Below are positions 73 through 63,173 of a stretch of 63,173 nt of DNA, one piece after another. A model generated the notes under the pieces. That model ran no database searches, was not told the DNA's origin, and saw only the letters and a list, made by a program, of their open reading frames with translations. The DNA lies in contig JAFUYI010000006.1 in NCBI GenBank assembly GCA_017470585.1, positions 1 to 63,173 of the forward strand, given 5' to 3'. The translations under genes were made by a program, and so were the position numbers. Each line of letters starts with the position of its first letter. Position 1 is the first letter of the stretch. This DNA is from Alphaproteobacteria bacterium (GTDB lineage Bacteria; Pseudomonadota; Alphaproteobacteria; RF32; CAG-239).

Positions 73-173
73 TCCCGATTATAAGGGGCGGTGCCTAAAT
101 TTCAGGAGATGCCTTGACCACCTGTGGAGGCATGACGGCGGGAGGAAGGCAAAAAAGGGAAGAAGCAAAAAGT

Positions 174-185
174 GCAAAATTTTGC
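174..185. promoter_or_regulatory. Perfect 12-bp palindrome GCAAAATTTTGC abutting the -35 box of the L1 promoter (possible operator)
   Basis: The same palindrome occupies the same position relative to the -35 box of the L6 promoter (29248-29259). Confidence 0.35.
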
Positions 186-450
186 TTTACATTACTGATT
201 TTATATGCTAGGATAAAATTGAAGTGAGCGAAAAGCCGCTTTGAGGTGTCAGAACCTCTTTCGTGGTGTCTAAAAGACATAAAATGCTTCTGGCTTGATT
301 ATGGTCGGAAGGCAGGGGAATATAAAGAATACCTTGCACTATTCCACGAAATAGTTCTGAACTTCCGACCACCTCGCGGCTCTAAAAAGCCAACAGGTGG
401 TTTCTTTTTTAAGTTAACAAAAAAAAGAAATTATAAAGGGAGTATAGAAA
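186..450 (+). promoter_or_regulatory. Promoter and structured 5' leader, copy L1 (controls paralog P1)
   Basis: -35 TTTACA 186-191, 17-nt spacer, -10 TAGGAT 209-214. The leader starts at about 221 (GAAGTGAGCG). P1 arms are GAGGTG-TCAGAAC-CCTC-TTTCGTGG (243-266) and CCACGAAA-TA-GTTCTGA (344-360). Other helices: P2 TGTCT/AGACA, P3 CTTCTGGC/GTCGGAAG, P4 GCAGG/CTTGC. These are followed by ACTTCCGACC-ACCTC, the terminator at 368-410 and the SD AAGGGAG. Confidence 0.75.
368..410 (+). terminator. Intrinsic terminator (attenuator) inside leader L1
   Basis: Stem ACCACCT/AGGTGGT with an inner GGCT/AGCC pairing, followed by TTTCTTTTTT. It lies 40 nt upstream of the ATG. Confidence 0.7.
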
Positions 451-921
451 ATGAATAAATATATTTTAATGCTTGGCGTTGCCGGAGTTGCTCTTGGCAG
501 TTACGCAGCCTACGCGGGCAACTCGGCAACAATGACCGTAACAGCCACAATAGCTCATGATGTGAGCATAAATATTGAACAGGAAATGAGTTGCGGAACA
601 ATTACCATTGACCCATCGCAAAGTTTCGGTGCATGGGATTGCAATGATGATGATACTTCAAAAAACGGAGGTGTGATGTCCAAGAGCGGGACAAGAATTG
701 GCAAGATAAGTGCCAATGTTCCGGCAAGCGGATGGCATTGGACCATTACCAAAACCGATTTTCCTTCTCCGTTGGCATGGGCTGGAGGAACACCTGTAAT
801 ATCTGAGAATATTCAATCTGACGGTTTTTATCATGTATATGCATACATTGAATATAACACTGTTCCAGCAGAAGACGATTACAGTGCCACAATAACCGTA
901 AGTTATACTCCAGAAAGTTAG
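451..921 (+). CDS. Secreted DUF4402-like (pilin-like) protein, paralog P1
   Basis: 156 aa. Signal peptide MNKYILMLGVAGVALGSYAAYA, then GNSATMTVTATIAHDVS. C-terminus ..ATITVSYTPES. Belongs to the subtype without the CGGL motif. Confidence 0.9.
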   Translation: MNKYILMLGVAGVALGSYAAYAGNSATMTVTATIAHDVSINIEQEMSCGTITIDPSQSFGAWDCNDDDTSKNGGVMSKSGTRIGKISANVPASGWHWTITKTDFPSPLAWAGGTPVISENIQSDGFYHVYAYIEYNTVPAEDDYSATITVSYTPES

Positions 922-14988: not shown

Positions 14989-15242
14989 TTTACATTGCCG
15001 TTTTTTTATGTTAACTTGAAAAGCGAAGTGAGTGAAAAACCGCTTTGAGGTGTGGAAACCTCTTCTGGGACGTTTAGAAAAACGCAAAACTTCTGGCTGA
15101 TTATGGCCGGAAGGTCGGGGAATATAAAGAATACCCGGCACTGTCTCCCAGAGCAGTTTCCAACTTCCGACCACCTCGCGGGTTTTAATGCCCAGAAGGT
15201 GGTTTTTCTTTATAACGTTAATAAAAGAAGGAAGTTTATAAA
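14989..15242 (+). promoter_or_regulatory. Promoter and structured 5' leader, copy L2 (controls P2)
   Basis: -35 TTTACA 14989-14994, 17 nt, -10 TAACTT 15012-15017. P1 arms TGGAAAC (15053-59) and TCTGGGA (15064-70) pair with TCCCAGA (15146-52) and GTTTCCA (15156-62). P4 is GTCGG/CCGGC. Confidence 0.75.
15170..15210 (+). terminator. Intrinsic terminator (attenuator) inside leader L2
   Basis: ACCACCT/AGGTGGT stem followed by TTTTTCTTT. Confidence 0.7.
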
Positions 15243-15782
15243 ATGAAAAATTATATTTTAATGCTGGGGGTTGCAAGCGTTGCTTTAGGCTCTTACTGTG
15301 CCTATGCAGGAAATTCCGCCACAATGACCGTTACCGCAACAATAGCCCACGATGTAAGCTTGACCAAAACAAGAGATTTAAGCCTTGGCACCATTACCAT
15401 AAATCCGGCAACAGAGGAGGAAACCTATTGGTTCTACAGCGATTCGGGTGTTTATCGTTTAGATTATGGAGATGGTATTGTGTCCGCTTCTAATGCTACT
15501 GTCGGTACTTTTACTGCTAATATCCCAAATCCTTCAGCTTGCAACACGGGAACCGAATCTTGCGGAGGATTAAGTATTACCGGAAACTATGAGGGGTATA
15601 TTGATAACCTCTTTGGCGGAAGTGATGGTGGTAATTCCTGTGATTTTCATATTAAGTACAGCGGAACGGAAAACAGCTTTAATGTGTTTCCTGATCATTG
15701 TTGGATAGATGAAAACAAAATGTCTTCCGTCACCACCGGTTCGCATACCGGAACTTTGACTATTTCCTATACTCCGAGCTGA
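15243..15782 (+). CDS. Secreted DUF4402-like protein, paralog P2
   Basis: 179 aa. ..SYCAYA|GNSATMTVTATIAHDVSL, GTITINP, GTFTANIPNPSAC..CGGL, ..GTLTISYTPS. Confidence 0.92.
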   Translation: MKNYILMLGVASVALGSYCAYAGNSATMTVTATIAHDVSLTKTRDLSLGTITINPATEEETYWFYSDSGVYRLDYGDGIVSASNATVGTFTANIPNPSACNTGTESCGGLSITGNYEGYIDNLFGGSDGGNSCDFHIKYSGTENSFNVFPDHCWIDENKMSSVTTGSHTGTLTISYTPS

Positions 15783-18130: not shown

Positions 18131-18402
18131 TTGATTGACAATAAAACCTATGATATAGTTACTTTGAAACAGGGAAATCCTGTTTTGGGGTGTGATGACC
18201 TCGCAATTGACGTTTATAAAGAAAAACGTAAAAATTCTTCCTGCTATAAAATGGCCGGAAGGTCGGGAAATAGGGGATAACCTAATACTCGGCACTGGTT
18301 CAATTGTCAGTCATCAACTTCCGACCACCTCTAGGGTTTATGCCTCAAAAGGTGGTTTTCTTTTAATGTTAACAAAAAAGAATTATAAAGGAAGTAAGAA
18401 AG
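18131..18402 (+). promoter_or_regulatory. Promoter and structured 5' leader, copy L3 (controls P3)
   Basis: -35 TTGATT 18131-36, 17 nt, -10 TATAGT 18154-59. P0 is AAACAGG/CCTGTTT. P1 arms TGATGAC..CAATTGA pair with TCAATTG..GTCATCA. P2 is ACGTTT/AAACGT. Confidence 0.75.
18324..18364 (+). terminator. Intrinsic terminator (attenuator) inside leader L3
   Basis: ACCACCT/AGGTGGT stem followed by TTTTCTTTT. The loop sequence is identical to that of L7. Confidence 0.7.
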
Positions 18403-18924
18403 ATGAACAAATATATTTTAATGATAGGTCTTGCAAGCGTTGCCCTTGGCTCGTATTGTGCGTATGCGGGAAATTCGGCAACAATGACCGTTACCGCCAC
18501 GATTGCCCACGACGTGAGCTTGAGTGTTACGCAAGATTTAGACCTTGGCACCATTACCATCAATCCGGCATTTGACGGAGCAGCTACAGTGTGGCATTAC
18601 AGAGCTTCGGGAGTAATTAGTTTCGATCCTCAAGGAGCTATCGTATCGGCAGGAAACGCAACAGTTGGCACTTTTACTGCTAATATTCCTAATCCGGCCG
18701 ATTGTGATGGAACTGCTGACTGCGGAGGATTGAGTGTTGATGATACTATTGGCAATTTCTTCGGCGGAAGTGATTATACTAATAATTGTGACTTTCAAAT
18801 TCAATACAGCGGATCAGCTAATACATTTAAGGTTTATCCTGATGTTTGCTATATAGGCGATATATCCAAAGTCACTACCGGCACGCATTCGCATACTTTA
18901 ACCATCTCTTACAATCCGGAATAA
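18403..18924 (+). CDS. Secreted DUF4402-like protein, paralog P3
   Basis: 173 aa. Same N-terminal strand, GTITINP, CDGTADCGGL, ..HTLTISYNPE. Confidence 0.92.
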   Translation: MNKYILMIGLASVALGSYCAYAGNSATMTVTATIAHDVSLSVTQDLDLGTITINPAFDGAATVWHYRASGVISFDPQGAIVSAGNATVGTFTANIPNPADCDGTADCGGLSVDDTIGNFFGGSDYTNNCDFQIQYSGSANTFKVYPDVCYIGDISKVTTGTHSHTLTISYNPE

Positions 18925-20907: not shown

Positions 20908-21400
20908 ACGAACGCGAGCCGGGAGTGACTGTAGATGCATCTTCTATTATGCAACCATCAGGCATCACCTCAAAGCTATTTCCACTTCCGTATTTGTTGT
21001 AAATAGCAAACCAGCAATAATTGCTATTATCACTGCCAAAAATTTTAACCACGCCACCCTCCTCTAGCTGTAGTCCTCCGCACGACCAATTTGCCATATT
21101 GCAATCTTCCGGATTGGGGATATTGGCGGTAAAAGTACCGATGGTGGCATTATCTGCAGAAACAACTGCATATCCAGTGTCATAACTAGGCACACCCGCA
21201 TTATAATACCACTCTGTATCCGTTCCGGCATAAGCTGGGTTAATGGTAATTGTACCCATATTTATATCGCCGGTTTTGGTAAGGCTAACATCGTGGGCAA
21301 TTGTGGCGGTTACGGTCATTGTTGCCGAATTTCCGGCGTAGGCACAATAAGAACCAAGGGCAACCCCTGCAACACCGAGCATTAAAATATATTTGTTCAT
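20876..21400 (-). CDS. Secreted DUF4402-like protein, paralog P4
   Basis: 174 aa. Same N-terminal strand, GTITINP, CNMANWSCGGL, ..YTFTISYSPE. Confidence 0.92.
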   Translation of the reverse strand: MNKYILMLGVAGVALGSYCAYAGNSATMTVTATIAHDVSLTKTGDINMGTITINPAYAGTDTEWYYNAGVPSYDTGYAVVSADNATIGTFTANIPNPEDCNMANWSCGGLQLEEGGVVKIFGSDNSNYCWFAIYNKYGSGNSFEVMPDGCIIEDASTVTPGSRSYTFTISYSPE

Positions 21401-21670
21401 ATTCTTTACTTCCTTTATAATTTTCTTTTTCTGTTAACACTAAAAAGAAAACCACCTTTGGGCGTAAAACCCTGAAGGCGGTTGGAAGCTCAAAACTACT
21501 AACTGATGTAGTGCAAGGTATTCTTTATATTCCCCTGCCTTCCAACCATAAAGATCGGATATATACCGATTTACGTTTCGGTACAAACGTCAGTTACGAG
21601 GTTTTGAGACCTCAAAGCGGTTTTTCACTCGCTTCAAAGTCAATATAACATAAGTTTTATTGATTGGCAA
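21401..21670 (-). promoter_or_regulatory. Promoter and structured 5' leader, copy L5 (controls P4)
   Basis: On the minus strand: -35 TTGCCA (21665-70), 17 nt, -10 TATATT (21642-47). The leader starts at about 21635 (GAAGCGAGTG). P1 arms CTCAAAAC..TAACTGA pair with TCAGTTA..GTTTTGAG. There is an extra hairpin ATCGG/CCGAT. Confidence 0.75.
21442..21482 (-). terminator. Intrinsic terminator (attenuator) inside leader L5
   Basis: RNA ACCGCCT/AGGTGGT (one G-U pair) followed by TTTTCTTTTT. Confidence 0.65.
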
Positions 21671-26834: not shown

Positions 26835-27100
26835 TTGATTTAAGCAAAAAACTGTTTTAGTATGAATCTTGAAGTGAAGAATTTTCACTTTGAGGTGTGA
26901 CAGCCCCTATCAAAGCGTTTTTAAGAAAAACGTAAAAATTCTTCCTGCTATAATGGTTGGAAGGCAAAGGAATAAGAGATACCTCAAATACTTTGCACTG
27001 TTCTTTGATACAGCTGTCAACTTCCAGCCACCTCGCGGAGTACATCTCCAACGGGTGGTTTCTTTTTATAACCGCAAAGAAACCATAAAAGGAAGTTTAG
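26835..27100 (+). promoter_or_regulatory. Promoter and structured 5' leader, copy L4 (controls divergent paralog P5)
   Basis: -35 TTGATT 26835-40, 17 nt, -10 TAGTAT 26858-63. P0 is AAGTGAA/TTCACTT. P1 arms TGACAGC..TATCAAAG pair with CTTTGATA..GCTGTCA. P4 is GCAAA/TTTGC with a distal GAG/CTC hairpin. Confidence 0.75.
27028..27067 (+). terminator. Intrinsic terminator (attenuator) inside leader L4
   Basis: CCACC/GGTGG stem with an inner GGAG/CTCC pairing, followed by TTTCTTTTT. Confidence 0.65.
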
Positions 27101-27655
27101 ATGACAAACAAAACTTTTTTAATTCTTTTATTATTAGGCGTATCATATACCGCCTATAATGTAAGCGCAGTGTCCGAAAATTTTGCAATCTCCACTACTA
27201 TCGACCACGAAATTGTTTTAAGCAATTTCAAAACCGCAAGTGCGGATGCAAATTTAGATGTAACCGGAAATATAAGCCTCGGCACAATTTACATTAACCC
27301 CAACGGAACCGAAGAGTCTTGGTGGTCTTATGATGATGCGGGGCAGGTTGCTGGTTTGAACGGAGATATTGTTGTTAAAGCTGATAACATCAATTTCGGT
27401 ACCTTTAGCGCAAATGTTTCCAATCCGCAAGCTTGCAACGGAAAAAGTACATCTTGTGCGGGTTTATCCACTCGGAGACATGTCGTGATGTTCGGGGCAA
27501 CGTATTGGTATGATAGTTATTGTAATTTTTACATAAAATACAGCGGGAGCGGCAATGTATTTAAGGTATTCCCGCATTGCATAATATACCATGTTTCATC
27601 TGTCAGCAGAGGCTATCACAGCCAGACTTTTGACATCTCCTATACGGCGGAATAA
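27101..27655 (+). CDS. Divergent member of the DUF4402-like family, paralog P5
   Basis: 184 aa. Keeps GTIYINP, GTFSANVSNPQAC..C.GL and ..TFDISYTAE. The signal peptide and N-terminal strand differ (VSENFAISTTIDHEIVL). Confidence 0.88.
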   Translation: MTNKTFLILLLLGVSYTAYNVSAVSENFAISTTIDHEIVLSNFKTASADANLDVTGNISLGTIYINPNGTEESWWSYDDAGQVAGLNGDIVVKADNINFGTFSANVSNPQACNGKSTSCAGLSTRRHVVMFGATYWYDSYCNFYIKYSGSGNVFKVFPHCIIYHVSSVSRGYHSQTFDISYTAE

Positions 27656-28459: not shown

Positions 28460-28996
28460 TTAACTCGGGTTATACTCAATGGTCAACGTTCCCGAATGCG
28501 AGCCGGCGGTAACGGAAGAGATATTGGATATCCAGCAATTTTGAGGAAATATCTTGAAGACATTTCTGCTTCCGCTATATTGAATATAAAAGGAACAGGC
28601 ATTACTCTCATCATTTCCGCCAAAGAAATTAGAAATATCATAGGAGTCATTTCCTGTTACACTCAATCCTCCACAGGAATTATTGAAAACATTGCAATCT
28701 TCCGGATTGGGAATATTAGCAGTAAAAGTACCGACTGTGACATTAGGAGCAGACACAAGCGCACCTTGAGAGGCAACAGATATTCCGGCACTGTCATAAC
28801 CCCAATCTGTATCATTACCATCATAAGCTGGGTTAATGGTAATTGTACCCATATCTATATCTTGAATAACGCTCAAACTAACATCGTGGGCGATTGTTGC
28901 GGTAACGGTCATTGTGGCGGAATTGCCGGCGTAGGCACAGTATGAACCTATGGAAACTGCGGCAACGCCGAGTAATAAAATATATTTTTTCATCAT
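28460..28996 (-). CDS. Secreted DUF4402-like protein, paralog P6
   Basis: 178 aa. Same N-terminal strand, GTITINP, CNVFNNSCGGL, ..GTLTIEYNPS. Confidence 0.92.
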   Translation of the reverse strand: MMKKYILLLGVAAVSIGSYCAYAGNSATMTVTATIAHDVSLSVIQDIDMGTITINPAYDGNDTDWGYDSAGISVASQGALVSAPNVTVGTFTANIPNPEDCNVFNNSCGGLSVTGNDSYDISNFFGGNDESNACSFYIQYSGSRNVFKIFPQNCWISNISSVTAGSHSGTLTIEYNPS

Positions 28997-29247
28997 CTAA
29001 ACTTCCTTATCTATTGTTAACAAAGAAAATCACCCCGACAAATAGACGAGGTGATTGGAAGTTTCAGACTGTCATGTATAACAGTGTATGGTATTTGGTT
29101 GAAACCTTATTTCCATACCTTCCAACCATAATACGGTCAGAAGTAGTTTTATGTCTTTGCGGACAATACATGAGAGGTCTGAAAACCTCAAAGTGACCTT
29201 TCATTCACTTCATTTTCTACCCTAGCATAAAAAATCTTTTATGTAAA
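28997..29247 (-). promoter_or_regulatory. Promoter and structured 5' leader, copy L6 (controls P6)
   Basis: On the minus strand: -35 TTTACA (29242-47), 17 nt, -10 TAGGGT (29219-24). The leader starts at about 29211. P1 arms TTTCAGAC..TCATGTAT pair with ATACATGA..GTCTGAAA. P4 is GTATGG/CCATAC with a distal GGTT/AACC hairpin. The palindrome GCAAAATTTTGC lies at 29248-29259. Confidence 0.75.
29022..29055 (-). terminator. Intrinsic terminator (attenuator) inside leader L6
   Basis: RNA ATCACC/GGTGAT stem followed by TTTTCTTTG. Confidence 0.6.
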
Positions 29248-32673: not shown

Positions 32674-33195
32674 TTAACTTGCGGTATAAGAAATGGTGAT
32701 GGTTTGTTCATGTGTTCCGGCAACGGTGGACTCTGGAGACTCAAAACCACAACTACTCGGCACAACTTTAAATCTGTTTGAGCTGTCGTGGACTATGTAA
32801 AAACTGCATGCATTACTGTCTTCAGGATTGCCGCTTAAAATACCAAATATTTCACTCGGCACACTCAAACCTCCGCAAGTATAACTTGAGCCGTCACAAG
32901 CCGAAGGATTGGCAATGTTGGCGGTAAAAGTCCCCGGAGTTGCTGATGTTGCCGCAATTATGGAATCATTTTTACTTTTAACCGTTCCGTCCAAGTTATA
33001 AGATACACTACCTATACTCATATCTGCCGGATTGATGGTGATTGTACCGATATTTAAATCGGTAACGCCGCCAAGGCTCACATCATGGGCAATTGTCGCG
33101 GTAACGGTCATTGTTGCCGAATTTCCCGCATACGCACAATACGAGCCAAGGGCAATTCCTGCAACGCCGAGTAATAAAATATAATTTTTTATCAT
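32674..33195 (-). CDS. Secreted DUF4402-like protein, paralog P7
   Basis: 173 aa. Same N-terminal strand, GTITINP, CDGSSYTCGGL, ..QTITISYTAS. Confidence 0.92.
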   Translation of the reverse strand: MIKNYILLLGVAGIALGSYCAYAGNSATMTVTATIAHDVSLGGVTDLNIGTITINPADMSIGSVSYNLDGTVKSKNDSIIAATSATPGTFTANIANPSACDGSSYTCGGLSVPSEIFGILSGNPEDSNACSFYIVHDSSNRFKVVPSSCGFESPESTVAGTHEQTITISYTAS

Positions 33196-33444
33196 CTAAA
33201 CTTCCTTATCTATTGTTAACAAAGAAAACCACCTTTTGAGGCATAAACCCTAGAGGTGGTCGGAAGCTCGAAACTGTGATGTAAAACAGTGCCGGGTATT
33301 CTTTATATTTCCCGACCTTCCAACCATAGCACGGTTAGAAACAATTTTATGTCTTGCCTGACATTACATCAGAGGCTTCGAGACCTCAAAGCGGTTTTTC
33401 ACTCACTTCAAAAAAAATATACCATAAGTTCTATGCAAAATCAA
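33196..33444 (-). promoter_or_regulatory. Promoter and structured 5' leader, copy L7 (controls P7)
   Basis: On the minus strand: -35 TTGATT (33439-44), 17 nt, -10 TATATT (33416-21). The leader starts at about 33409. P1 arms CTCGAAGC..TGATGTAA pair with TTACATCA..GTTTCGAG. The SD and spacer are identical to those of L6. Confidence 0.75.
33221..33260 (-). terminator. Intrinsic terminator (attenuator) inside leader L7
   Basis: RNA ACCACCT/AGGTGGT stem followed by TTTTCTTTG. Confidence 0.7.
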
Positions 33445-37637: not shown

Positions 37638-38111
37638 TTACGGATGATAGGTAATCATAATGCTGCCGAAGTCATGCGTTCCCGCGCTCGGCGCACCGCC
37701 GGAATAGTTTATTTGATAATCAACATCAAATTCGTTATCTGTTCCTGTAGTTACTACACTAAAACCATTAATCCTTAACGTATCATGAGTAAGCTCACTC
37801 GGCGATATGGTAAAACTGTTTTCTGCGGCATATTCATCATCGGGAACCGTTGCCGTAAATGCTCCCCGAACGGCTGTGCACATTCCTAAATAATTTTCGG
37901 GATTGCTATCCCCTGCAGTACACCAACCTTCCCCAATACTTGTTACCGCCGGATCGACCACTGCGTAAATGTCAATATCATTAACCTTGGTTAAGCTTAC
38001 ATCGTGAGCAATGGTTGCGGTAACGCTCATTGTCGCCGAGTTGCCGGCATAGGCACAATATGAGCCTAGAGCAACCGCGGCAACGCCAAGTAATAAAATA
38101 TATTTGTTCAT
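37638..38111 (-). CDS. Secreted DUF4402-like protein, paralog P8
   Basis: 157 aa. GNSATMSVTATIAHDVSL. Divergent body, ..GSIMITYHP. Belongs to the subtype without CGGL. Confidence 0.9.
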   Translation of the reverse strand: MNKYILLLGVAAVALGSYCAYAGNSATMSVTATIAHDVSLTKVNDIDIYAVVDPAVTSIGEGWCTAGDSNPENYLGMCTAVRGAFTATVPDDEYAAENSFTISPSELTHDTLRINGFSVVTTGTDNEFDVDYQINYSGGAPSAGTHDFGSIMITYHP

Positions 38112-38381
38112 ATTAAAACTTCCTTTCTTTAGTTTATTATAACTTTAATAAAAGAAACCACCTCTTGGAGTATTTCTCCGCGAGGTGGTCGGAAGTTCAC
38201 AACTATCAGTTATAATAGTCCTGCGTATTTGTGAAATCACTTATTTCGCAAGCTTCCGACCATAAGCCGGATACAAACCAAATAACGTTTTGGTAAACGA
38301 TAGCTGAGAGGTTGTGACACCTCAAAGCAGAATTTTCCCTGCTTCGATTTTTAAGCTAGCATAAAAAATCTTTTATGTCAA
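38112..38381 (-). promoter_or_regulatory. Promoter and structured 5' leader, copy L8 (controls P8)
   Basis: On the minus strand: -35 TTGACA (38376-81), 17 nt, -10 TAGCTT (38353-58). P0 is AAGCAG/CTGCTT. P1 arms TCACAAC..TCAGCTA pair with TAACTGA..GTTGTGA (one mismatch). P4 is CTTGCG/CGCAGG with a distal GTGA/TCAC hairpin. Confidence 0.72.
38151..38189 (-). terminator. Intrinsic terminator (attenuator) inside leader L8
   Basis: RNA ACCACCT/AGGTGGT stem with an inner GGAG/CTCC pairing, followed by TTTCTTTT. Confidence 0.7.
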
Positions 38382-42427: not shown

Positions 42428-42901
42428 TTAACTCGGAGTATAAGTAAAACGAACGGTTGAAGTATAGGTCGCTTCAGCAGGTACGGATTCGTATTTAATA
42501 CGCCCCTCAACAGGACAAGTGGTCGCTGTGCATTCAGCAGTGTGTACTCTAGGATCATTTTCATTGTGCCACGATACCGGTGCGGCAAAAGGGGTAACAA
42601 TTTCTTTTGTGAAACTGAAACCCGAAGCCGGAAAAGTCCCGACAATAGTTCCATACTGATCATCGGTTATTGATAATACTCCACCATCAAAGGTAGCCTG
42701 GACTATGCCAACGGCAATATTTCCTTCCGCGATACTCGGGTTGATGGTAACAGTGCCGAAGCTTAAAGGCTGTCCGACCGATAAACTCACATCGTGAGCA
42801 ATCGTTGCCGTTACGGTCATTGTTGCCGAATTGGTGGCATATGCGCAATATGAACCAAGCGCGACTGTTGCAACGCCTAACATTAAAAAATATTTATTCA
42901 T
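42428..42901 (-). CDS. Secreted DUF4402-like protein, paralog P9
   Basis: 157 aa. TNSATMTVTATIAHDVSL, GTVTINP, ..TVRFTYTPS. Belongs to the subtype without CGGL. Confidence 0.9.
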   Translation of the reverse strand: MNKYFLMLGVATVALGSYCAYATNSATMTVTATIAHDVSLSVGQPLSFGTVTINPSIAEGNIAVGIVQATFDGGVLSITDDQYGTIVGTFPASGFSFTKEIVTPFAAPVSWHNENDPRVHTAECTATTCPVEGRIKYESVPAEATYTSTVRFTYTPS

Positions 42902-43160
42902 TACAAAAACTTCCTTTTTTTATTAAAGTTATAATAAAGAAACCACCTTTTGGCTCTTGAAAGCCGCGAGGTGGCTGGAAGCTGACAACTGTTGTAAGGA
43001 ACAGTGTCGGGTATTCTTTATATTCCCCGACCTTCCAACCATAGAACGGTTAGAAGCAATTTTCTGTCTTGTTCGGACACCTTACAAGAGGCTGTCAGAC
43101 CTCAAAACGAAATTTTCTCCGTTTCGGAATTAAACTAGCACATTTTTAAACTTAAATCAA
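42902..43160 (-). promoter_or_regulatory. Promoter and structured 5' leader, copy L9 (controls P9)
   Basis: On the minus strand: -35 TTGATT (43155-60), 17 nt, -10 TAGTTT (43132-37). P0 is AAACG/CGTTT. P1 arms CTGACAGC..TTGTAAGG pair with CCTTACAA..GTTGTCAG (one G-U). P4 is GTCGG/CCGAC. Confidence 0.75.
42934..42975 (-). terminator. Intrinsic terminator (attenuator) inside leader L9
   Basis: RNA CCACCT/AGGTGG stem with an inner GGCT/AGCC pairing, followed by TTTCTTTATT. Confidence 0.65.
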
Positions 43161-62454: not shown

Positions 62455-63000
62455 TTAGCTTTCCGGAGTGTAAGAGATGGTCAAAGTTCCCGAATGCGAA
62501 CCGGGGGTAACTTTGGAAATTTTTCCCTCTAATATAGTGCAATCATAGCAACGTACCTCAAAGCCGTTTTCTGATCCACTGTATTTTAAAGCAAAGTTAC
62601 ATATACTAGTATTATCACTTCCTCCGAAAATATTAAGAATACCATTAGAACCATCATTTCCTTCAACCTTTAATCCTCCGCAATAATCAATTGGCGCATC
62701 GCAAGCTGACGGATTGGGGATATTAGCAGTAAAAGTGCCGATAGTTGCATTATCTGCTGTGACAAGGGCATCTCCATAGTCAACACTGGGTACACCAGAA
62801 TCGTTGTAACTCCATTCTGTTTCTTCGGTTGCTGACGGGTTAATGGTAATAGTTCCAAGGCTTATATCGCCGGTTTTGGTCAAACTCACATCATGAGCAA
62901 TCGTTGCCGTCACGGTCATTGTGGCGGAATTGCCTGCGTATGCGCAATAACTGCCTATGGAAACCGCGGCAATGCCGAGCATTAAAATATAATTTTTCAT
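62455..63000 (-). CDS. Secreted DUF4402-like protein, paralog P10
   Basis: 181 aa. Same N-terminal strand, GTITINP, CDAPIDYCGGL, ..GTLTISYTPES. Confidence 0.92.
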   Translation of the reverse strand: MKNYILMLGIAAVSIGSYCAYAGNSATMTVTATIAHDVSLTKTGDISLGTITINPSATEETEWSYNDSGVPSVDYGDALVTADNATIGTFTANIPNPSACDAPIDYCGGLKVEGNDGSNGILNIFGGSDNTSICNFALKYSGSENGFEVRCYDCTILEGKISKVTPGSHSGTLTISYTPES

Positions 63001-63173
63001 ATTAAAAACTTCCTTCTTTTATTAACGTCATAAAGAAAAACCACCTTTTGGGACGTATCCCGCGAGGTGGTCGGAAGCTCTAAACTGACACTTGAATCAG
63101 TGCAAAGTATTTGAGGTATCTCTTATTCCTTTGCCTTCCGGCCATTATAGCAGGAAGAATTTTTACGTTTTTC
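63001..63173 (-). promoter_or_regulatory. Structured 5' leader, copy L10 (its 5' part is cut off by the window edge)
   Basis: Contains P2 (..AAACGT), P3, P4 (GCAAA/TTTGC, identical to L4), 3' P1 arms ..TTCAAGTG..GTTTAGAG, then CTTCCGACCACCTC and the terminator. Confidence 0.7.
63032..63071 (-). terminator. Intrinsic terminator (attenuator) inside leader L10
   Basis: RNA ACCACCT/AGGTGGT stem followed by TTTTTCTTT. Confidence 0.7.

Follow-up and report, generated by a model that had tools for sequence, protein, structure and literature searches.

Leader anatomy and genomic copies

The window analysed here is a stretch of 63,173 nt from an Alphaproteobacteria bacterium (GCA_017470585.1, contig JAFUYI010000006.1, positions 1 to 63,173), and our subject is its region 354-450, which reaches from the 3' arm of a long-range helix (Pa) to the start codon of a 156-aa open reading frame (ORF, 451-921). 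This region represents the 3' third of a leader RNA of approximately 190 nt, which has its own upstream promoter. We propose, at about even confidence, that 354-450 is the expression platform of this self-promoted leader and acts as a dual attenuator of transcription and translation that pivots on a nine-base strand named Z. An earlier interpretation made from the letters alone, called the sequence-only reading below, had placed the antiterminator elsewhere, in a pairing of GAGGTG with CACCTC. The parts of the leader are listed in the following; column numbers refer to our own alignment of the 217 distinct copies of the leader in this genome.

186-214 (+): sigma-70-like promoter from a consensus scan, -35 TTTACA (186-191), 17-nt spacer, TG-extended -10 TAGGAT (209-214)
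221-242 (+): P0, 5'-terminal hairpin (covariation of columns 12-14 with 25-27; base-pair probability 0.94; present in the minimum free energy structure, MFE)
243-248 (+): GAGGTG block, 5' half of a local clamp hairpin and antiterminator strand of the sequence-only reading
248-255 (+): Pa 5' arm 'a1', variable barcode GTCAGAAC, also loop of the local hairpin (columns 36-43 with 148-155)
254-258 (+): ACCTC, local partner of GAGGT (compensated changes in this genome and in relatives)
260-266 (+): Pb 5' arm 'b1', variable barcode TTCGTGG (columns 48-54 with 138-144)
267-279 (+): small hairpin TGTCT-AAAA-GACA (covariation 55:69, 58:66)
287-295 (+): X (CTTCTGGCT), Z-like decoy that pairs with Y, proposed anti-antiterminator
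303-311 (+): Y (GGTCGGAAG), strand resembling a Shine-Dalgarno (SD) sequence, partner of X or Z
312-337 (+): P2 hairpin with conserved AAUA...AAUAC internal/terminal loop (covariation with frequent G:U; aligns to P2 of Rfam family RF02221)
338-355 (+): P3 (ACTAT/ATAGT; 135:146 and 136:145 covary), its loop CCACGAA (344-350) being the Pb 3' arm b'
354-361 (+): Pa 3' arm a' (GTTCTGAA; covariation)
360-370 (+): pivot strand, AA plus Z (CTTCCGACC, 362-370)
370-375 (+): CACCTC, the partner that the sequence-only reading gave to GAGGTG, inside the terminator 5' arm
367-410 (+): intrinsic terminator (RNAalifold, pair counts, base-pair probability 0.875, MFE)
438-453 (+): SD region GGGAGT (438-443) and ATG (451-453) of the 156-aa secreted paralog (451-921)

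The transcript would start at about 220, and in related genomes equivalent TTGAC(A/T)...TATA(A/G)T boxes stand upstream of the leader. Pa joins the variable TCAGAAC (249-255) to GTTCTGA (354-360), and across the copies its pairing is approximately 100% Watson-Crick with four pair types. The P3 arms vary among the relatives, for example as ACAAT/ATTGT or CATTT/AAATG. The pivot strand comprises the anti-SD sequence AACTTCC (360-366), the nine bases that can pair with Y (362-370; CUUCCGACC as RNA, with AA in front) and the base of the terminator 5' arm (367-370). In the terminator, the outer stem GACCACCT/AGGTGGTT (367-374 with 395-402, with AGGTGG at 396-401) encloses an inner stem GGCT/AGCC (378-381 with 388-391) and is followed by the U-tract TTTCTTTTTT (401-410). 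Owing to the inner stem, it escaped a simple terminator scan; the terminator stem is 100% paired in an alignment of 40 sequences, and a terminator was seen in 80 of 80 copies from other genomes.

The same anatomy recurs along the window:

15027-15254 (+): leader copy 2
18181-18414 (+): leader copy 3
21389-21625 (-): leader copy 4, terminator arm CCGCCTT
26884-27112 (+): leader copy 5
28985-29198 (-): leader copy 6, GAGGTT, terminator TCACCTC/GGTGAT
33184-33403 (-): leader copy 7
38100-38332 (-): leader copy 8
42890-43118 (-): leader copy 9
62989-63173 (-): leader copy 10, 5' side cut by the window end

The window contains 10 occurrences of the motif AACTTCCGACCACCT (1.0 expected), each of which precedes an ORF of 156-184 aa with a signal peptide. 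Compared with Pfam, the ten downstream proteins of the window gave no significant family, one of them showing a weak SCPU match (E=0.0013). An nhmmer search of the whole 1.55-Mb assembly returned 267 leader copies (example extents are 237-405, 15041-15207 and 18181-18360 of the window), of which 229 are full length; they occupy 2.8% of the DNA. An intact ORF with a matching SD follows 3-50 nt downstream in 225 of the 229 full-length copies; these ORFs have 95-194 aa (median 174) and start with MNKYILMLGVAGVALGSY...NSATMTVTATIAHDVSL. Leaders and ORFs of approximately 170 aa together make up roughly a tenth of the genome. Furthermore, 88 of the 267 copies lie less than 400 nt from a contig end, hence the assembly breaks at leader copies.

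Of 24 further genomes of the genus, 22 gave one to eight matches each to a covariance model built from the leader (R1). In an order-wide search, in which at most 13 copies per genome were counted, the model had matches in 174 of 201 genomes and in all 22 genera. The amplification to approximately 267 copies is not shared by those 24 genomes. We read 80 copies from other genomes with their flanks and used the 65 unique ones to compare partners in cis with shuffled partners. The genes downstream of these relatives are unrelated to each other and comprise many lipoproteins, type-IV-pilin-like proteins (N-terminal ...GRSMIEMLGVLAIIGVLSVGG...), family-2 glycosyltransferase-like proteins, an HTH (helix-turn-helix, XRE-like) regulator and a methyltransferase-like protein, these labels being taken from N-terminal sequences only (L016/L018/L034/L038, L043, L048-L052, L053/L056, L062/L066/L067/L076).

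Strand Y and its two partners

All column pairs of the 217 copies were ranked by mutual information with average product correction. The top pairs belong to Pa (36-43/148-155), Pb (48-54/138-144), the small hairpin (55-58/66-69), P2 (102-107/126-131), P3 (133-136/145-148), P0 (12-14/25-27), the pairing of Y with Z (Y:Z; 95:162 and 96:161) and the terminator (163:194). In Y:Z, columns 95:162 are occupied by TA in 134, TG in 44 and CG in 28 copies, and columns 96:161 by TA in 170, CG in 35 and TG in 12, none being broken. The same Y columns covary with X (83:96 and 84:95, the latter AT in 95, GT in 73 and GC in 37 copies). In the alignment of 40 sequences, a fold made of Pa, Pb, X:Y, P2 and the terminator reaches 96.9% pairing and has 339 doubly changed cells, and a fold resembling the small RNA sRNA-Xcc1 (local hairpin, P1 formed by Y:Z, P2 and P3) is 99.0% paired; in neither case did any of 500 shuffles reach the observed value. 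Since both folds are compensated, Y has two supported partners, X and Z, which are near copies of one another. Among the 65 unique relatives, Y:Z forms 581 pairs against 530.6±3.9 with shuffled partners and X:Y 542 against 508.4±3.9 (p<3e-4 in both cases). Sequence comparison thus shows the strands, their complementarities and the covariation of X:Y, Y:Z, Pa, Pb, P2, P3 and the local hairpin.

The last four bases of Z are also the first four of the terminator stem, and AA together with the first five bases of Z is complementary to the ribosome site, while Y can pair with the whole of Z or with the decoy X. The terminator stem begins at column 161, inside Z, in 65 of the 80 relatives and at columns 160-162 in 78 of 80. 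The overlap being fixed in position, the competition for the terminator would be conserved at the 3' end of the Y:Z helix, and the overlap of P1 and terminator is conserved across the bacterial family. Hence, the best-supported candidate for an evolutionarily conserved antiterminator is Y:Z and not GAGGTG:CACCTC; the sequence-only reading had given Y:Z no part beyond that of a decoy.

Several of these pairings strictly exclude each other, namely X:Y and Y:Z, Y:Z and the terminator foot, Y:Z and the pairing of Z with the SD, as well as the local hairpin and Pa (columns 42-43); moreover, G148 is claimed by both Pa and P3. These conflicts bear on the possibility that there is no switch and that the leader is a static, pseudoknotted 5' untranslated region (Pa, Pb, P3, P2 and X:Y or Y:Z) serving as mRNA stabiliser or scaffold, with the terminator as a partial pause or an insulator between dense cassettes. 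Judged by geometry, the strand of columns 138-164 could carry Pa, Pb, P3 and P1 in a single coaxial stack, the folding z-score of the whole untranslated region is -6.35 and a 5'-end hairpin such as P0 is typical of stabilisers. Such a scaffold, however, would not need mutually exclusive, separately compensated partners, whereas here the same nine bases serve X:Y and Y:Z, each of which covaries; columns 42-43 belong to two supported pairings, the local hairpin and Pa; and in 78 of 80 relatives four bases are common to Y:Z and the terminator. We therefore regard the static explanation as highly improbable.

We had considered that P3 and Pb on the one hand and P1 and Pa on the other might be sterically exclusive, and dropped this idea, as the long linkers would allow a pseudoknotted stack by strand topology. 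Columns 138-164 could then be one strand that pairs in turn with the 5' arm of Pb, the 5' arm of P3, the 5' arm of Pa and Y, and this continuous-strand geometry is that of the complex of c4, a phage antisense RNA, with its target. The conclusion that 354-450 would be an expression platform is independent of the question of coexistence.

The two barcode helices behave differently from the remaining pairings. Pa and Pb occur in 215 distinct combinations among the 217 copies and hardly use G:U pairs (0 of 868 in the Pa core and 9 of 1509 in Pb), compared with 151 of 867 (17%) in P2, 13% in P1 and 27% in X:Y. Ordinary compensatory drift predicts otherwise, and the near-absence of G:U points to selection for specificity or to a templated correction at the DNA level. 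Scarce G:U in Pa and Pb relative to P2 is also what one would predict if their inverted repeats acted as DNA, for example as recombination or template-switch sites by which the cassettes are diversified or shuffled, and the RNA pairing were incidental. This we consider extremely unlikely, because P2, P1, X:Y and P3 hold 7-27% G:U pairs, so that the strand matters; the promoter upstream and the terminator and SD downstream lie on the same strand in all copies; the same logic of a1/b1 and a'/b' is an RNA mechanism in the c4 family; and the covariation has been kept over 22 genera in front of unrelated genes. A separate 'selector' locus carrying a barcode was also sought and rejected, as each 17-18-nt block is unique in the genome in approximately 200 of 217 cases.

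The favoured model with Z as the pivot would work as follows. In the OFF state, Y (303-311) would be locked in a hairpin by the decoy X (287-295), and Z would thereby be free, so that its 3' four bases complete the terminator (367-402 plus the U-tract) and most transcripts stop; in RNA that is read through, AACUUCC could still mask the SD (GGAAGUU or GGGAGU). In the ON state, Y would take all nine bases of Z and thus form P1 of a three-way junction with P2 and P3 of the sRNA-Xcc1/c4 kind. The terminator would lose the four base pairs of its foot, its remaining stem would be parted from the U-tract and the anti-SD would be kept off the SD. We infer the assignment of ON and OFF to the two states, the default position of OFF and a shift from X:Y to Y:Z under some trigger, which might be a ligand, a protein, an RNA or folding kinetics. 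The calculated energies of the elements amount to -10.8 kcal/mol for the X:Y hairpin, -13.1 for the Y:Z duplex and -7.7 for Z:SD; the terminator has -17.2 kcal/mol, of which -8.7 is left once the four pairs in common with Y:Z are taken away. Nearest-neighbour calculations give the OFF fold as the ground state.

Several observations weigh against this model. In calculations that ignore pseudoknots, the ON fold exceeds the MFE by 5.5 kcal/mol as long as the 3' arm of the terminator has not emerged and by 11.9 kcal/mol thereafter, so the decision must be kinetic or assisted. In the same type of calculation Y:Z and P3 are minority structures, with base-pair probabilities of 0.03 and 0.11, respectively. 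The four shared pairs swap between P1 and the terminator at equal cost, hence P1 needs extra stabilisation if it is to prevent termination. A pseudoknotted stack might accommodate Pa, Pb, P3 and P1 at the same time, in which case the picture of two global folds is perhaps too simple. Furthermore, all permutation p-values are optimistic, because the copies in this genome are all paralogs and the relatives are phylogenetically non-independent. A search of sequencing runs matched four DNA runs from gut metagenomes and no RNA runs. Finally, the helix GAGGTG:CACCTC has a mean base-pair probability of 0.69 in transcripts cut before the 3' arm of the terminator and is part of the MFE of 90%, 59% and 81% of the copies when transcription has reached columns 170, 176 and 188, respectively.

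The GAGGTG helix and the anti-SD strand

The last point leads directly to the central pairing of the sequence-only reading. According to it, GAGGUG pairs with CACCUC across the bulged ACUUCCGAC (the 9-nt stretch between Pa and CACCTC, ACTTCCGAC), extends Pa and is a functional antiterminator, which competes with AGGUGG as well as with the local ACCUC. Of the 217 copies, 139 allow six Watson-Crick pairs and nearly all allow five; the duplex has -7.1 kcal/mol and, as mentioned above, the folding calculations favour it in the decision window. C169 does not vary, even though approximately 70% of the terminators leave it unpaired, and all b1=A relatives carry T at column 169. Nevertheless, we consider a functional antiterminator of this kind unlikely, since the helix lacks covariation. 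GAGGT, ACCTC (columns 165-169) and the terminator stem are nearly invariant in the 217 copies; the sixth base of GAGGTG, which had been taken as conserved, is G in only 140 of them (C in 53, T in 17, A in 7), so that the sixth pair (columns 36:164) is broken in 78 of 217 copies, C164 being invariant. The reason is that column 36 covaries with column 155 (GA in 140, CG in 53 and TA in 17 copies) and thereby extends Pa; columns 36:155 are also cis-specific in the 65 unique relatives (p<3e-4). Counting pairs in the 40 sequences gave no double change and 16 of 40 broken sixth pairs, and the only informative variants in the other five pairs, two copies with G33A, are compensated at column 44 and not at column 167.

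The relatives tell the same. Their terminator 5' arms read CGCTTC, CGCCTC, CGCCTT, CACCTC, TACCTC, CACTCT and similar, which are mostly transitions of one another; CGCTTC and CGCCTT give two G:U pairs over a bulge of 8-9 nt, and approximately 14 relatives lack one or two pairs of the helix. With G:U allowed, cis partners form 294 pairs and shuffled partners 292.6±2.0 (p=0.31; p=0.31-0.74 over the tests of this kind), while a strict Watson-Crick permutation test is marginal (p=0.039). The arms thus retain a wobble complementarity to GAGGTG by descent, with no sign of selection among these sequences. In the full leader the terminator always displaces the helix at equilibrium (probability 0.875 versus 0.005), the GAGGTG:CACCTC state lying 10.1 kcal/mol above the terminated state. 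It would also be less coherent than Y:Z, since, with transcription ON, the anti-SD would remain in the bulge and could block translation. In the folding calculations GAGGUG:CACCUC would accordingly be at most a transient helix in this lineage, which delays the closure of the terminator.

We suggest instead that GAGG is conserved mainly as a clamp on the a1 barcode loop. The sequence-only reading had also proposed that GAGGT folds locally onto ACCTC, and this idea fared well. The two G33A variants carry C44T, relatives show AAGGT/ACCTT and GGAGT/ACTCC, and the pairing is cis-specific both in a permutation test (p<0.0002) and in a second test with the 65 unique relatives (292 pairs versus 284.5±2.4, p=0.003). 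An arrangement of clamps as in c4-a1b1 explains why GAGG is conserved without any pairing to a terminator; GAGG/CCTC appears as the ancestral clamp round the a1 loop and is found also in true sRNA-Xcc1 loci, which lack such a terminator. A further pairing proposed by RNAalifold would lengthen Pa by GAGGT:ACTTC, with a bulged G36. The sequences allow it, possibly as a minor pairing, but we set it aside because it has no cis-specific signal (p=0.34-0.41) and column 36 pairs with column 155.

The remaining elements of the earlier interpretation largely stand. GAGGTG, ACCTC, the terminator arms (A)CCACCT(C)/AGGTGG(T), AACTTCC and GGAAGTT are present in the window copies and in the approximately 217 distinct copies, and they are located as claimed; only the statement that every copy carries the arms in this form overlooked small variants, CCGCCTT in copy 4 and TCACCTC/GGTGAT in copy 6. 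Its SD assignments for copies 4 and 5 were swapped, the copy at 21389-21625 (-) having GGAAGTAAAG and that at 26884-27112 (+) GGAAGTTTAG. Several conserved and mutually exclusive pairings are indeed present, with the anatomy of a switch that could act on both termination and translation initiation. The interpretation was right in kind and probably wrong in its central pairing.

The proposed anti-SD character of AACTTCC is supported by statistics. The SD region reads AGGAAGTTT, complementary to AACTTCC, in 161 of 217 copies; no covariation of AACTTCC:GGAAGTT can be read within the genome, as both sides are invariant there. GGAAGTT is found in 74% of the SD windows of the family, whereas among 1065 windows upstream of other ORFs in this genome, in which AAGGA and AGGAG dominate, it reaches 0.1%. 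The 3' end of the 16S rRNA, from which the ribosomal anti-SD could be read, was sought in this assembly by a pattern search and not found. In 60 relatives, which precede non-homologous genes, the best Watson-Crick match of a 7-mer to the own Z is 5.65 of 7 on average, compared with 5.48±0.05 for permuted Z (p=0.0014) and 4.75±0.20 for composition-matched shuffled 7-mers (maximum 5.6 in 2000 trials, below the observed value). The match is complete in 14 and 6 of 7 in 19 of these 60 relatives, and copies with AACTCCC are accompanied by GGGAGTT (L025, L047, L061b). Z:SD has an equilibrium probability of 0.42, and the MFE of the copy at 354-450 includes it. These data support a conserved anti-SD strand that goes beyond the SD consensus. 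They are also in line with the earlier claims that AACTTCC is complementary to both the GG..GGAAG strand, which is Y, and the SD, that the SD could be masked, and that the GG..GGAAG strand is aptly called an SD decoy.

The relatives contain further candidate contacts. In L003-L081 (e.g. L009, L028, L030, L033, L048), the P0 loop UGAUGA is complementary to the terminator loop UCAUCA, with covarying variants TGATTA/TAATCA, TGATAA/TTATCA, TGGATT/AATCCA and TGGTGT/ACACC. The mean Watson-Crick run between these loops is 3.95 versus 3.35±0.12 after shuffling (0 of 3000 shuffles equal), which looks like a kissing contact of the 5' hairpin with the terminator. It is absent in the present genome (2.96 versus 2.93, p=0.24), where the terminator has its extra inner stem. 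In L003, L004, L007 and others (alignment A4, columns approximately 95-140), the loop of a hairpin after Pb is complementary to a stretch 5' of X; the loop sequences GUGUAA, GCGCGAA and GCAUCA change together with UUGCAC, UUUGCGCGC and UGAUGC, respectively, which is not evident in this genome. Such a pairing would amount to an additional pseudoknot or an alternative hairpin.

Known RNAs and the meaning of the leader

At the Rfam gathering threshold the window gave no match, and no riboswitch family was matched among 4227 Rfam models even at E<=10. Likewise, RF01695 and RF01394 were not matched at E<=10 (window 150-470; 1441-1760 of the relative L009). Below threshold, positions 303-378 match sRNA-Xcc1 (RF02221) with 32.9 bits, the gathering score being 53; the best copy in this genome reaches 36.2 bits and the relatives 36.2-39.5, all below 53. 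RF02221 is found above its cut-off in 46 of 401 genomes of the phylum, and R1 in turn did not match any of 12 true Xcc1 loci. We conclude that sRNA-Xcc1 and the phage RNAs c4 and c4-a1b1 are the closest known relatives of the leader.

The RNA sRNA-Xcc1 is an integron- or transposon-borne small RNA of Xanthomonas and many other Proteobacteria (RF02221), seen as an 88-nt RNA on Northern blots (PMC2996969) and located upstream of symE in the same orientation (bioRxiv 10.1101/2025.06.18.660453). The core from Y to Z aligns end to end over the 87-position model, and the two share the 9-bp P1, P2 with its AAUA/AAUA loop, P3, the single-stranded J3/1, the 'RCC' tail and the position directly upstream of a gene in the same orientation. 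The three-way junction of P1, P2 and P3 covaries in both the 40 and the 217 copies. In addition, five true RF02221 loci (L082, L085, L087, L090, L093) have an upstream GAGG-a1-CCUC-b1 module, whose a1 and b1 are complementary to J3/1 and to the P3 loop, respectively, of the Xcc1 element that follows, and a hairpin that starts in the 'RCC' tail of P1. The module of clamp, a1, clamp and b1 lies approximately 90-130 nt upstream of Xcc1, which is followed by the hairpin with a T-run. The leader differs from sRNA-Xcc1 in that a single RNA of approximately 190 nt unites the a1/b1 module, the core, a strong U-tract terminator and the SD, in that it has an extra decoy strand X and a fixed anti-SD, and in its copy number, which is 267 in one 1.55-Mb genome compared with one to a few elsewhere. 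The R-C-C following Y:Z (columns 165-167; window approximately 371-375) is also found in the Rfam consensus of Xcc1 ('aCCC') and resembles the discriminator of a tRNA acceptor plus CC.

Reportedly, Citron and Schuster placed the control by c4 at the ribosome-binding site in 1990, with a transcriptional consequence; their paper is cited in PMC8198154. Like the c4 RNA of phages P1 and P7 (RF01695), the leader is encoded in cis upstream of the gene in question, has two short specificity strands a' and b' complementary to an upstream a1/b1, points to control at the ribosome-binding site and is hypervariable in its specificity strands, between copies as between P1 and P7. In contrast to c4, the ribosome-binding site is matched by the constant AACUUCC strand and not by a2/b2 sites, termination in the leader is intrinsic (hairpin plus U-tract) instead of Rho-dependent, and the leaders are chromosomal and belong to a large gene family, whereas c4 resides in a phage immunity region. 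The c4-a1b1 arrangement was listed by Weinberg et al. 2010 (PMC2864571), matches to C4, isrK and Xcc1 stand close together in Xylella genome annotations (PMC12189769), and c4 is listed as an RNase P substrate (PMC2190699). Because of the latter, RNase P-type processing at the 5' side of Y is conceivable. A search for a2/b2 sites of the c4 type near the SD (-45 to +30 of the ORF start) gave 6.58 versus 6.52±0.03 for a' (p=0.03) and 5.62 versus 5.61 for b' (p=0.40), and the idea was rejected. At one true Xcc1 locus, L082, the downstream SD is by eye flanked by near copies of a1 and b1 (UCGAGAC...AGAUAGC). The sequences suggest that Xcc1 may act on the gene behind it as c4 does.

Given this kinship, the leader might chiefly be a small RNA gene of the c4/sRNA-Xcc1 kind, in which termination at the U-tract is constitutive, the product is an RNA of approximately 180 nt or a processed Xcc1-like core that acts through the exposed a'/b' strands or by way of RNase P processing, and the downstream gene is expressed only by leak-through. 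The alignment of the core to RF02221 (32.9-39.5 bits), the a1/b1 module and the hairpin from the P1 tail at true Xcc1 loci, the Northern blots, the position upstream of symE and the RNase P listing cited above are all in its favour, and so is the terminator as the equilibrium structure in 95-100% of the copies. Yet there are no a2/b2 target sites near the downstream SD, the barcode blocks occur once in approximately 200 of 217 cases, which leaves no separate target, and 225 of 229 full-length copies precede an intact ORF with a matching SD. The X/Y/Z covariation and the fixed anti-SD:SD complementarity would have no role in a purely trans-acting RNA. Hence, we regard this explanation as quite unlikely.

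The attenuator model with Z as the pivot, in turn, finds its counterparts in classical attenuators and ON-type riboswitch platforms. The trp leader works by 1:2, 2:3 and 3:4 pairings, and in pbuE the 3' strand of the aptamer P1 is shared with the terminator. In the leader, X, Y, Z and the terminator 3' arm can likewise each pair with the next, and the 3' end of the helix closing a three-way junction is shared with the terminator 5' arm as in platforms of the pbuE adenine riboswitch type. A G+C-rich hairpin with a U-tract lies between promoter and ORF, Y:Z shares columns 161-164 with the terminator, X:Y competes for Y, and both pairings covary. As in classical attenuators, Y:Z (-13.1 kcal/mol) is intrinsically stronger than the X:Y hairpin (-10.8 kcal/mol), and because the terminator is far more stable than the alternative, the decision would be kinetic. 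The leader differs from these systems in having neither a leader peptide nor a known ligand or aptamer family, in a single pivot strand that also carries the anti-SD and thus gives two levels of control, in the extra hypervariable long-range helices Pa and Pb, essentially without G:U, and, among the relatives, in a 5' hairpin loop that apparently kisses the terminator loop.

A still wider reading would see in the leader a new, family-wide class of cis-acting RNA switches derived from the c4/sRNA-Xcc1 antisense module. One pivot strand of 11 nt would couple termination and SD masking and be toggled by the SD mimic Y and the decoy X, while approximately 215 strictly Watson-Crick 'address' helices (a1/b1 with a'/b') would restrict the feedback of terminated leaders to nascent transcripts of the gene they come from. 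We find this a distinctly doubtful proposal; if true, it would provide self-reinforcing one-of-many expression of a surface-protein family of approximately 250 members without DNA rearrangement.

In this genome more than 220 paralogous genes for secreted proteins each have the leader, and approximately 3% of the DNA is leader sequence. This raises the question of which signal or which barcode-specific RNA-RNA contact chooses the cassette to be expressed among hundreds of nearly identical ones. X, Y, Z, the terminator and the SD provide a wiring diagram for a large uncatalogued RNA family that can be tested by mutation. The comparison also suggests that sRNA-Xcc1, so far treated as trans-acting, may serve as the leader of the following gene. 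If the model with Z as the pivot is right, an antisense module of the c4/Xcc1 type would have become a compact cis attenuator in which one strand serves both termination and translation, and genes of the surface and envelope would be governed in this way across a whole family of uncultured gut Alphaproteobacteria.

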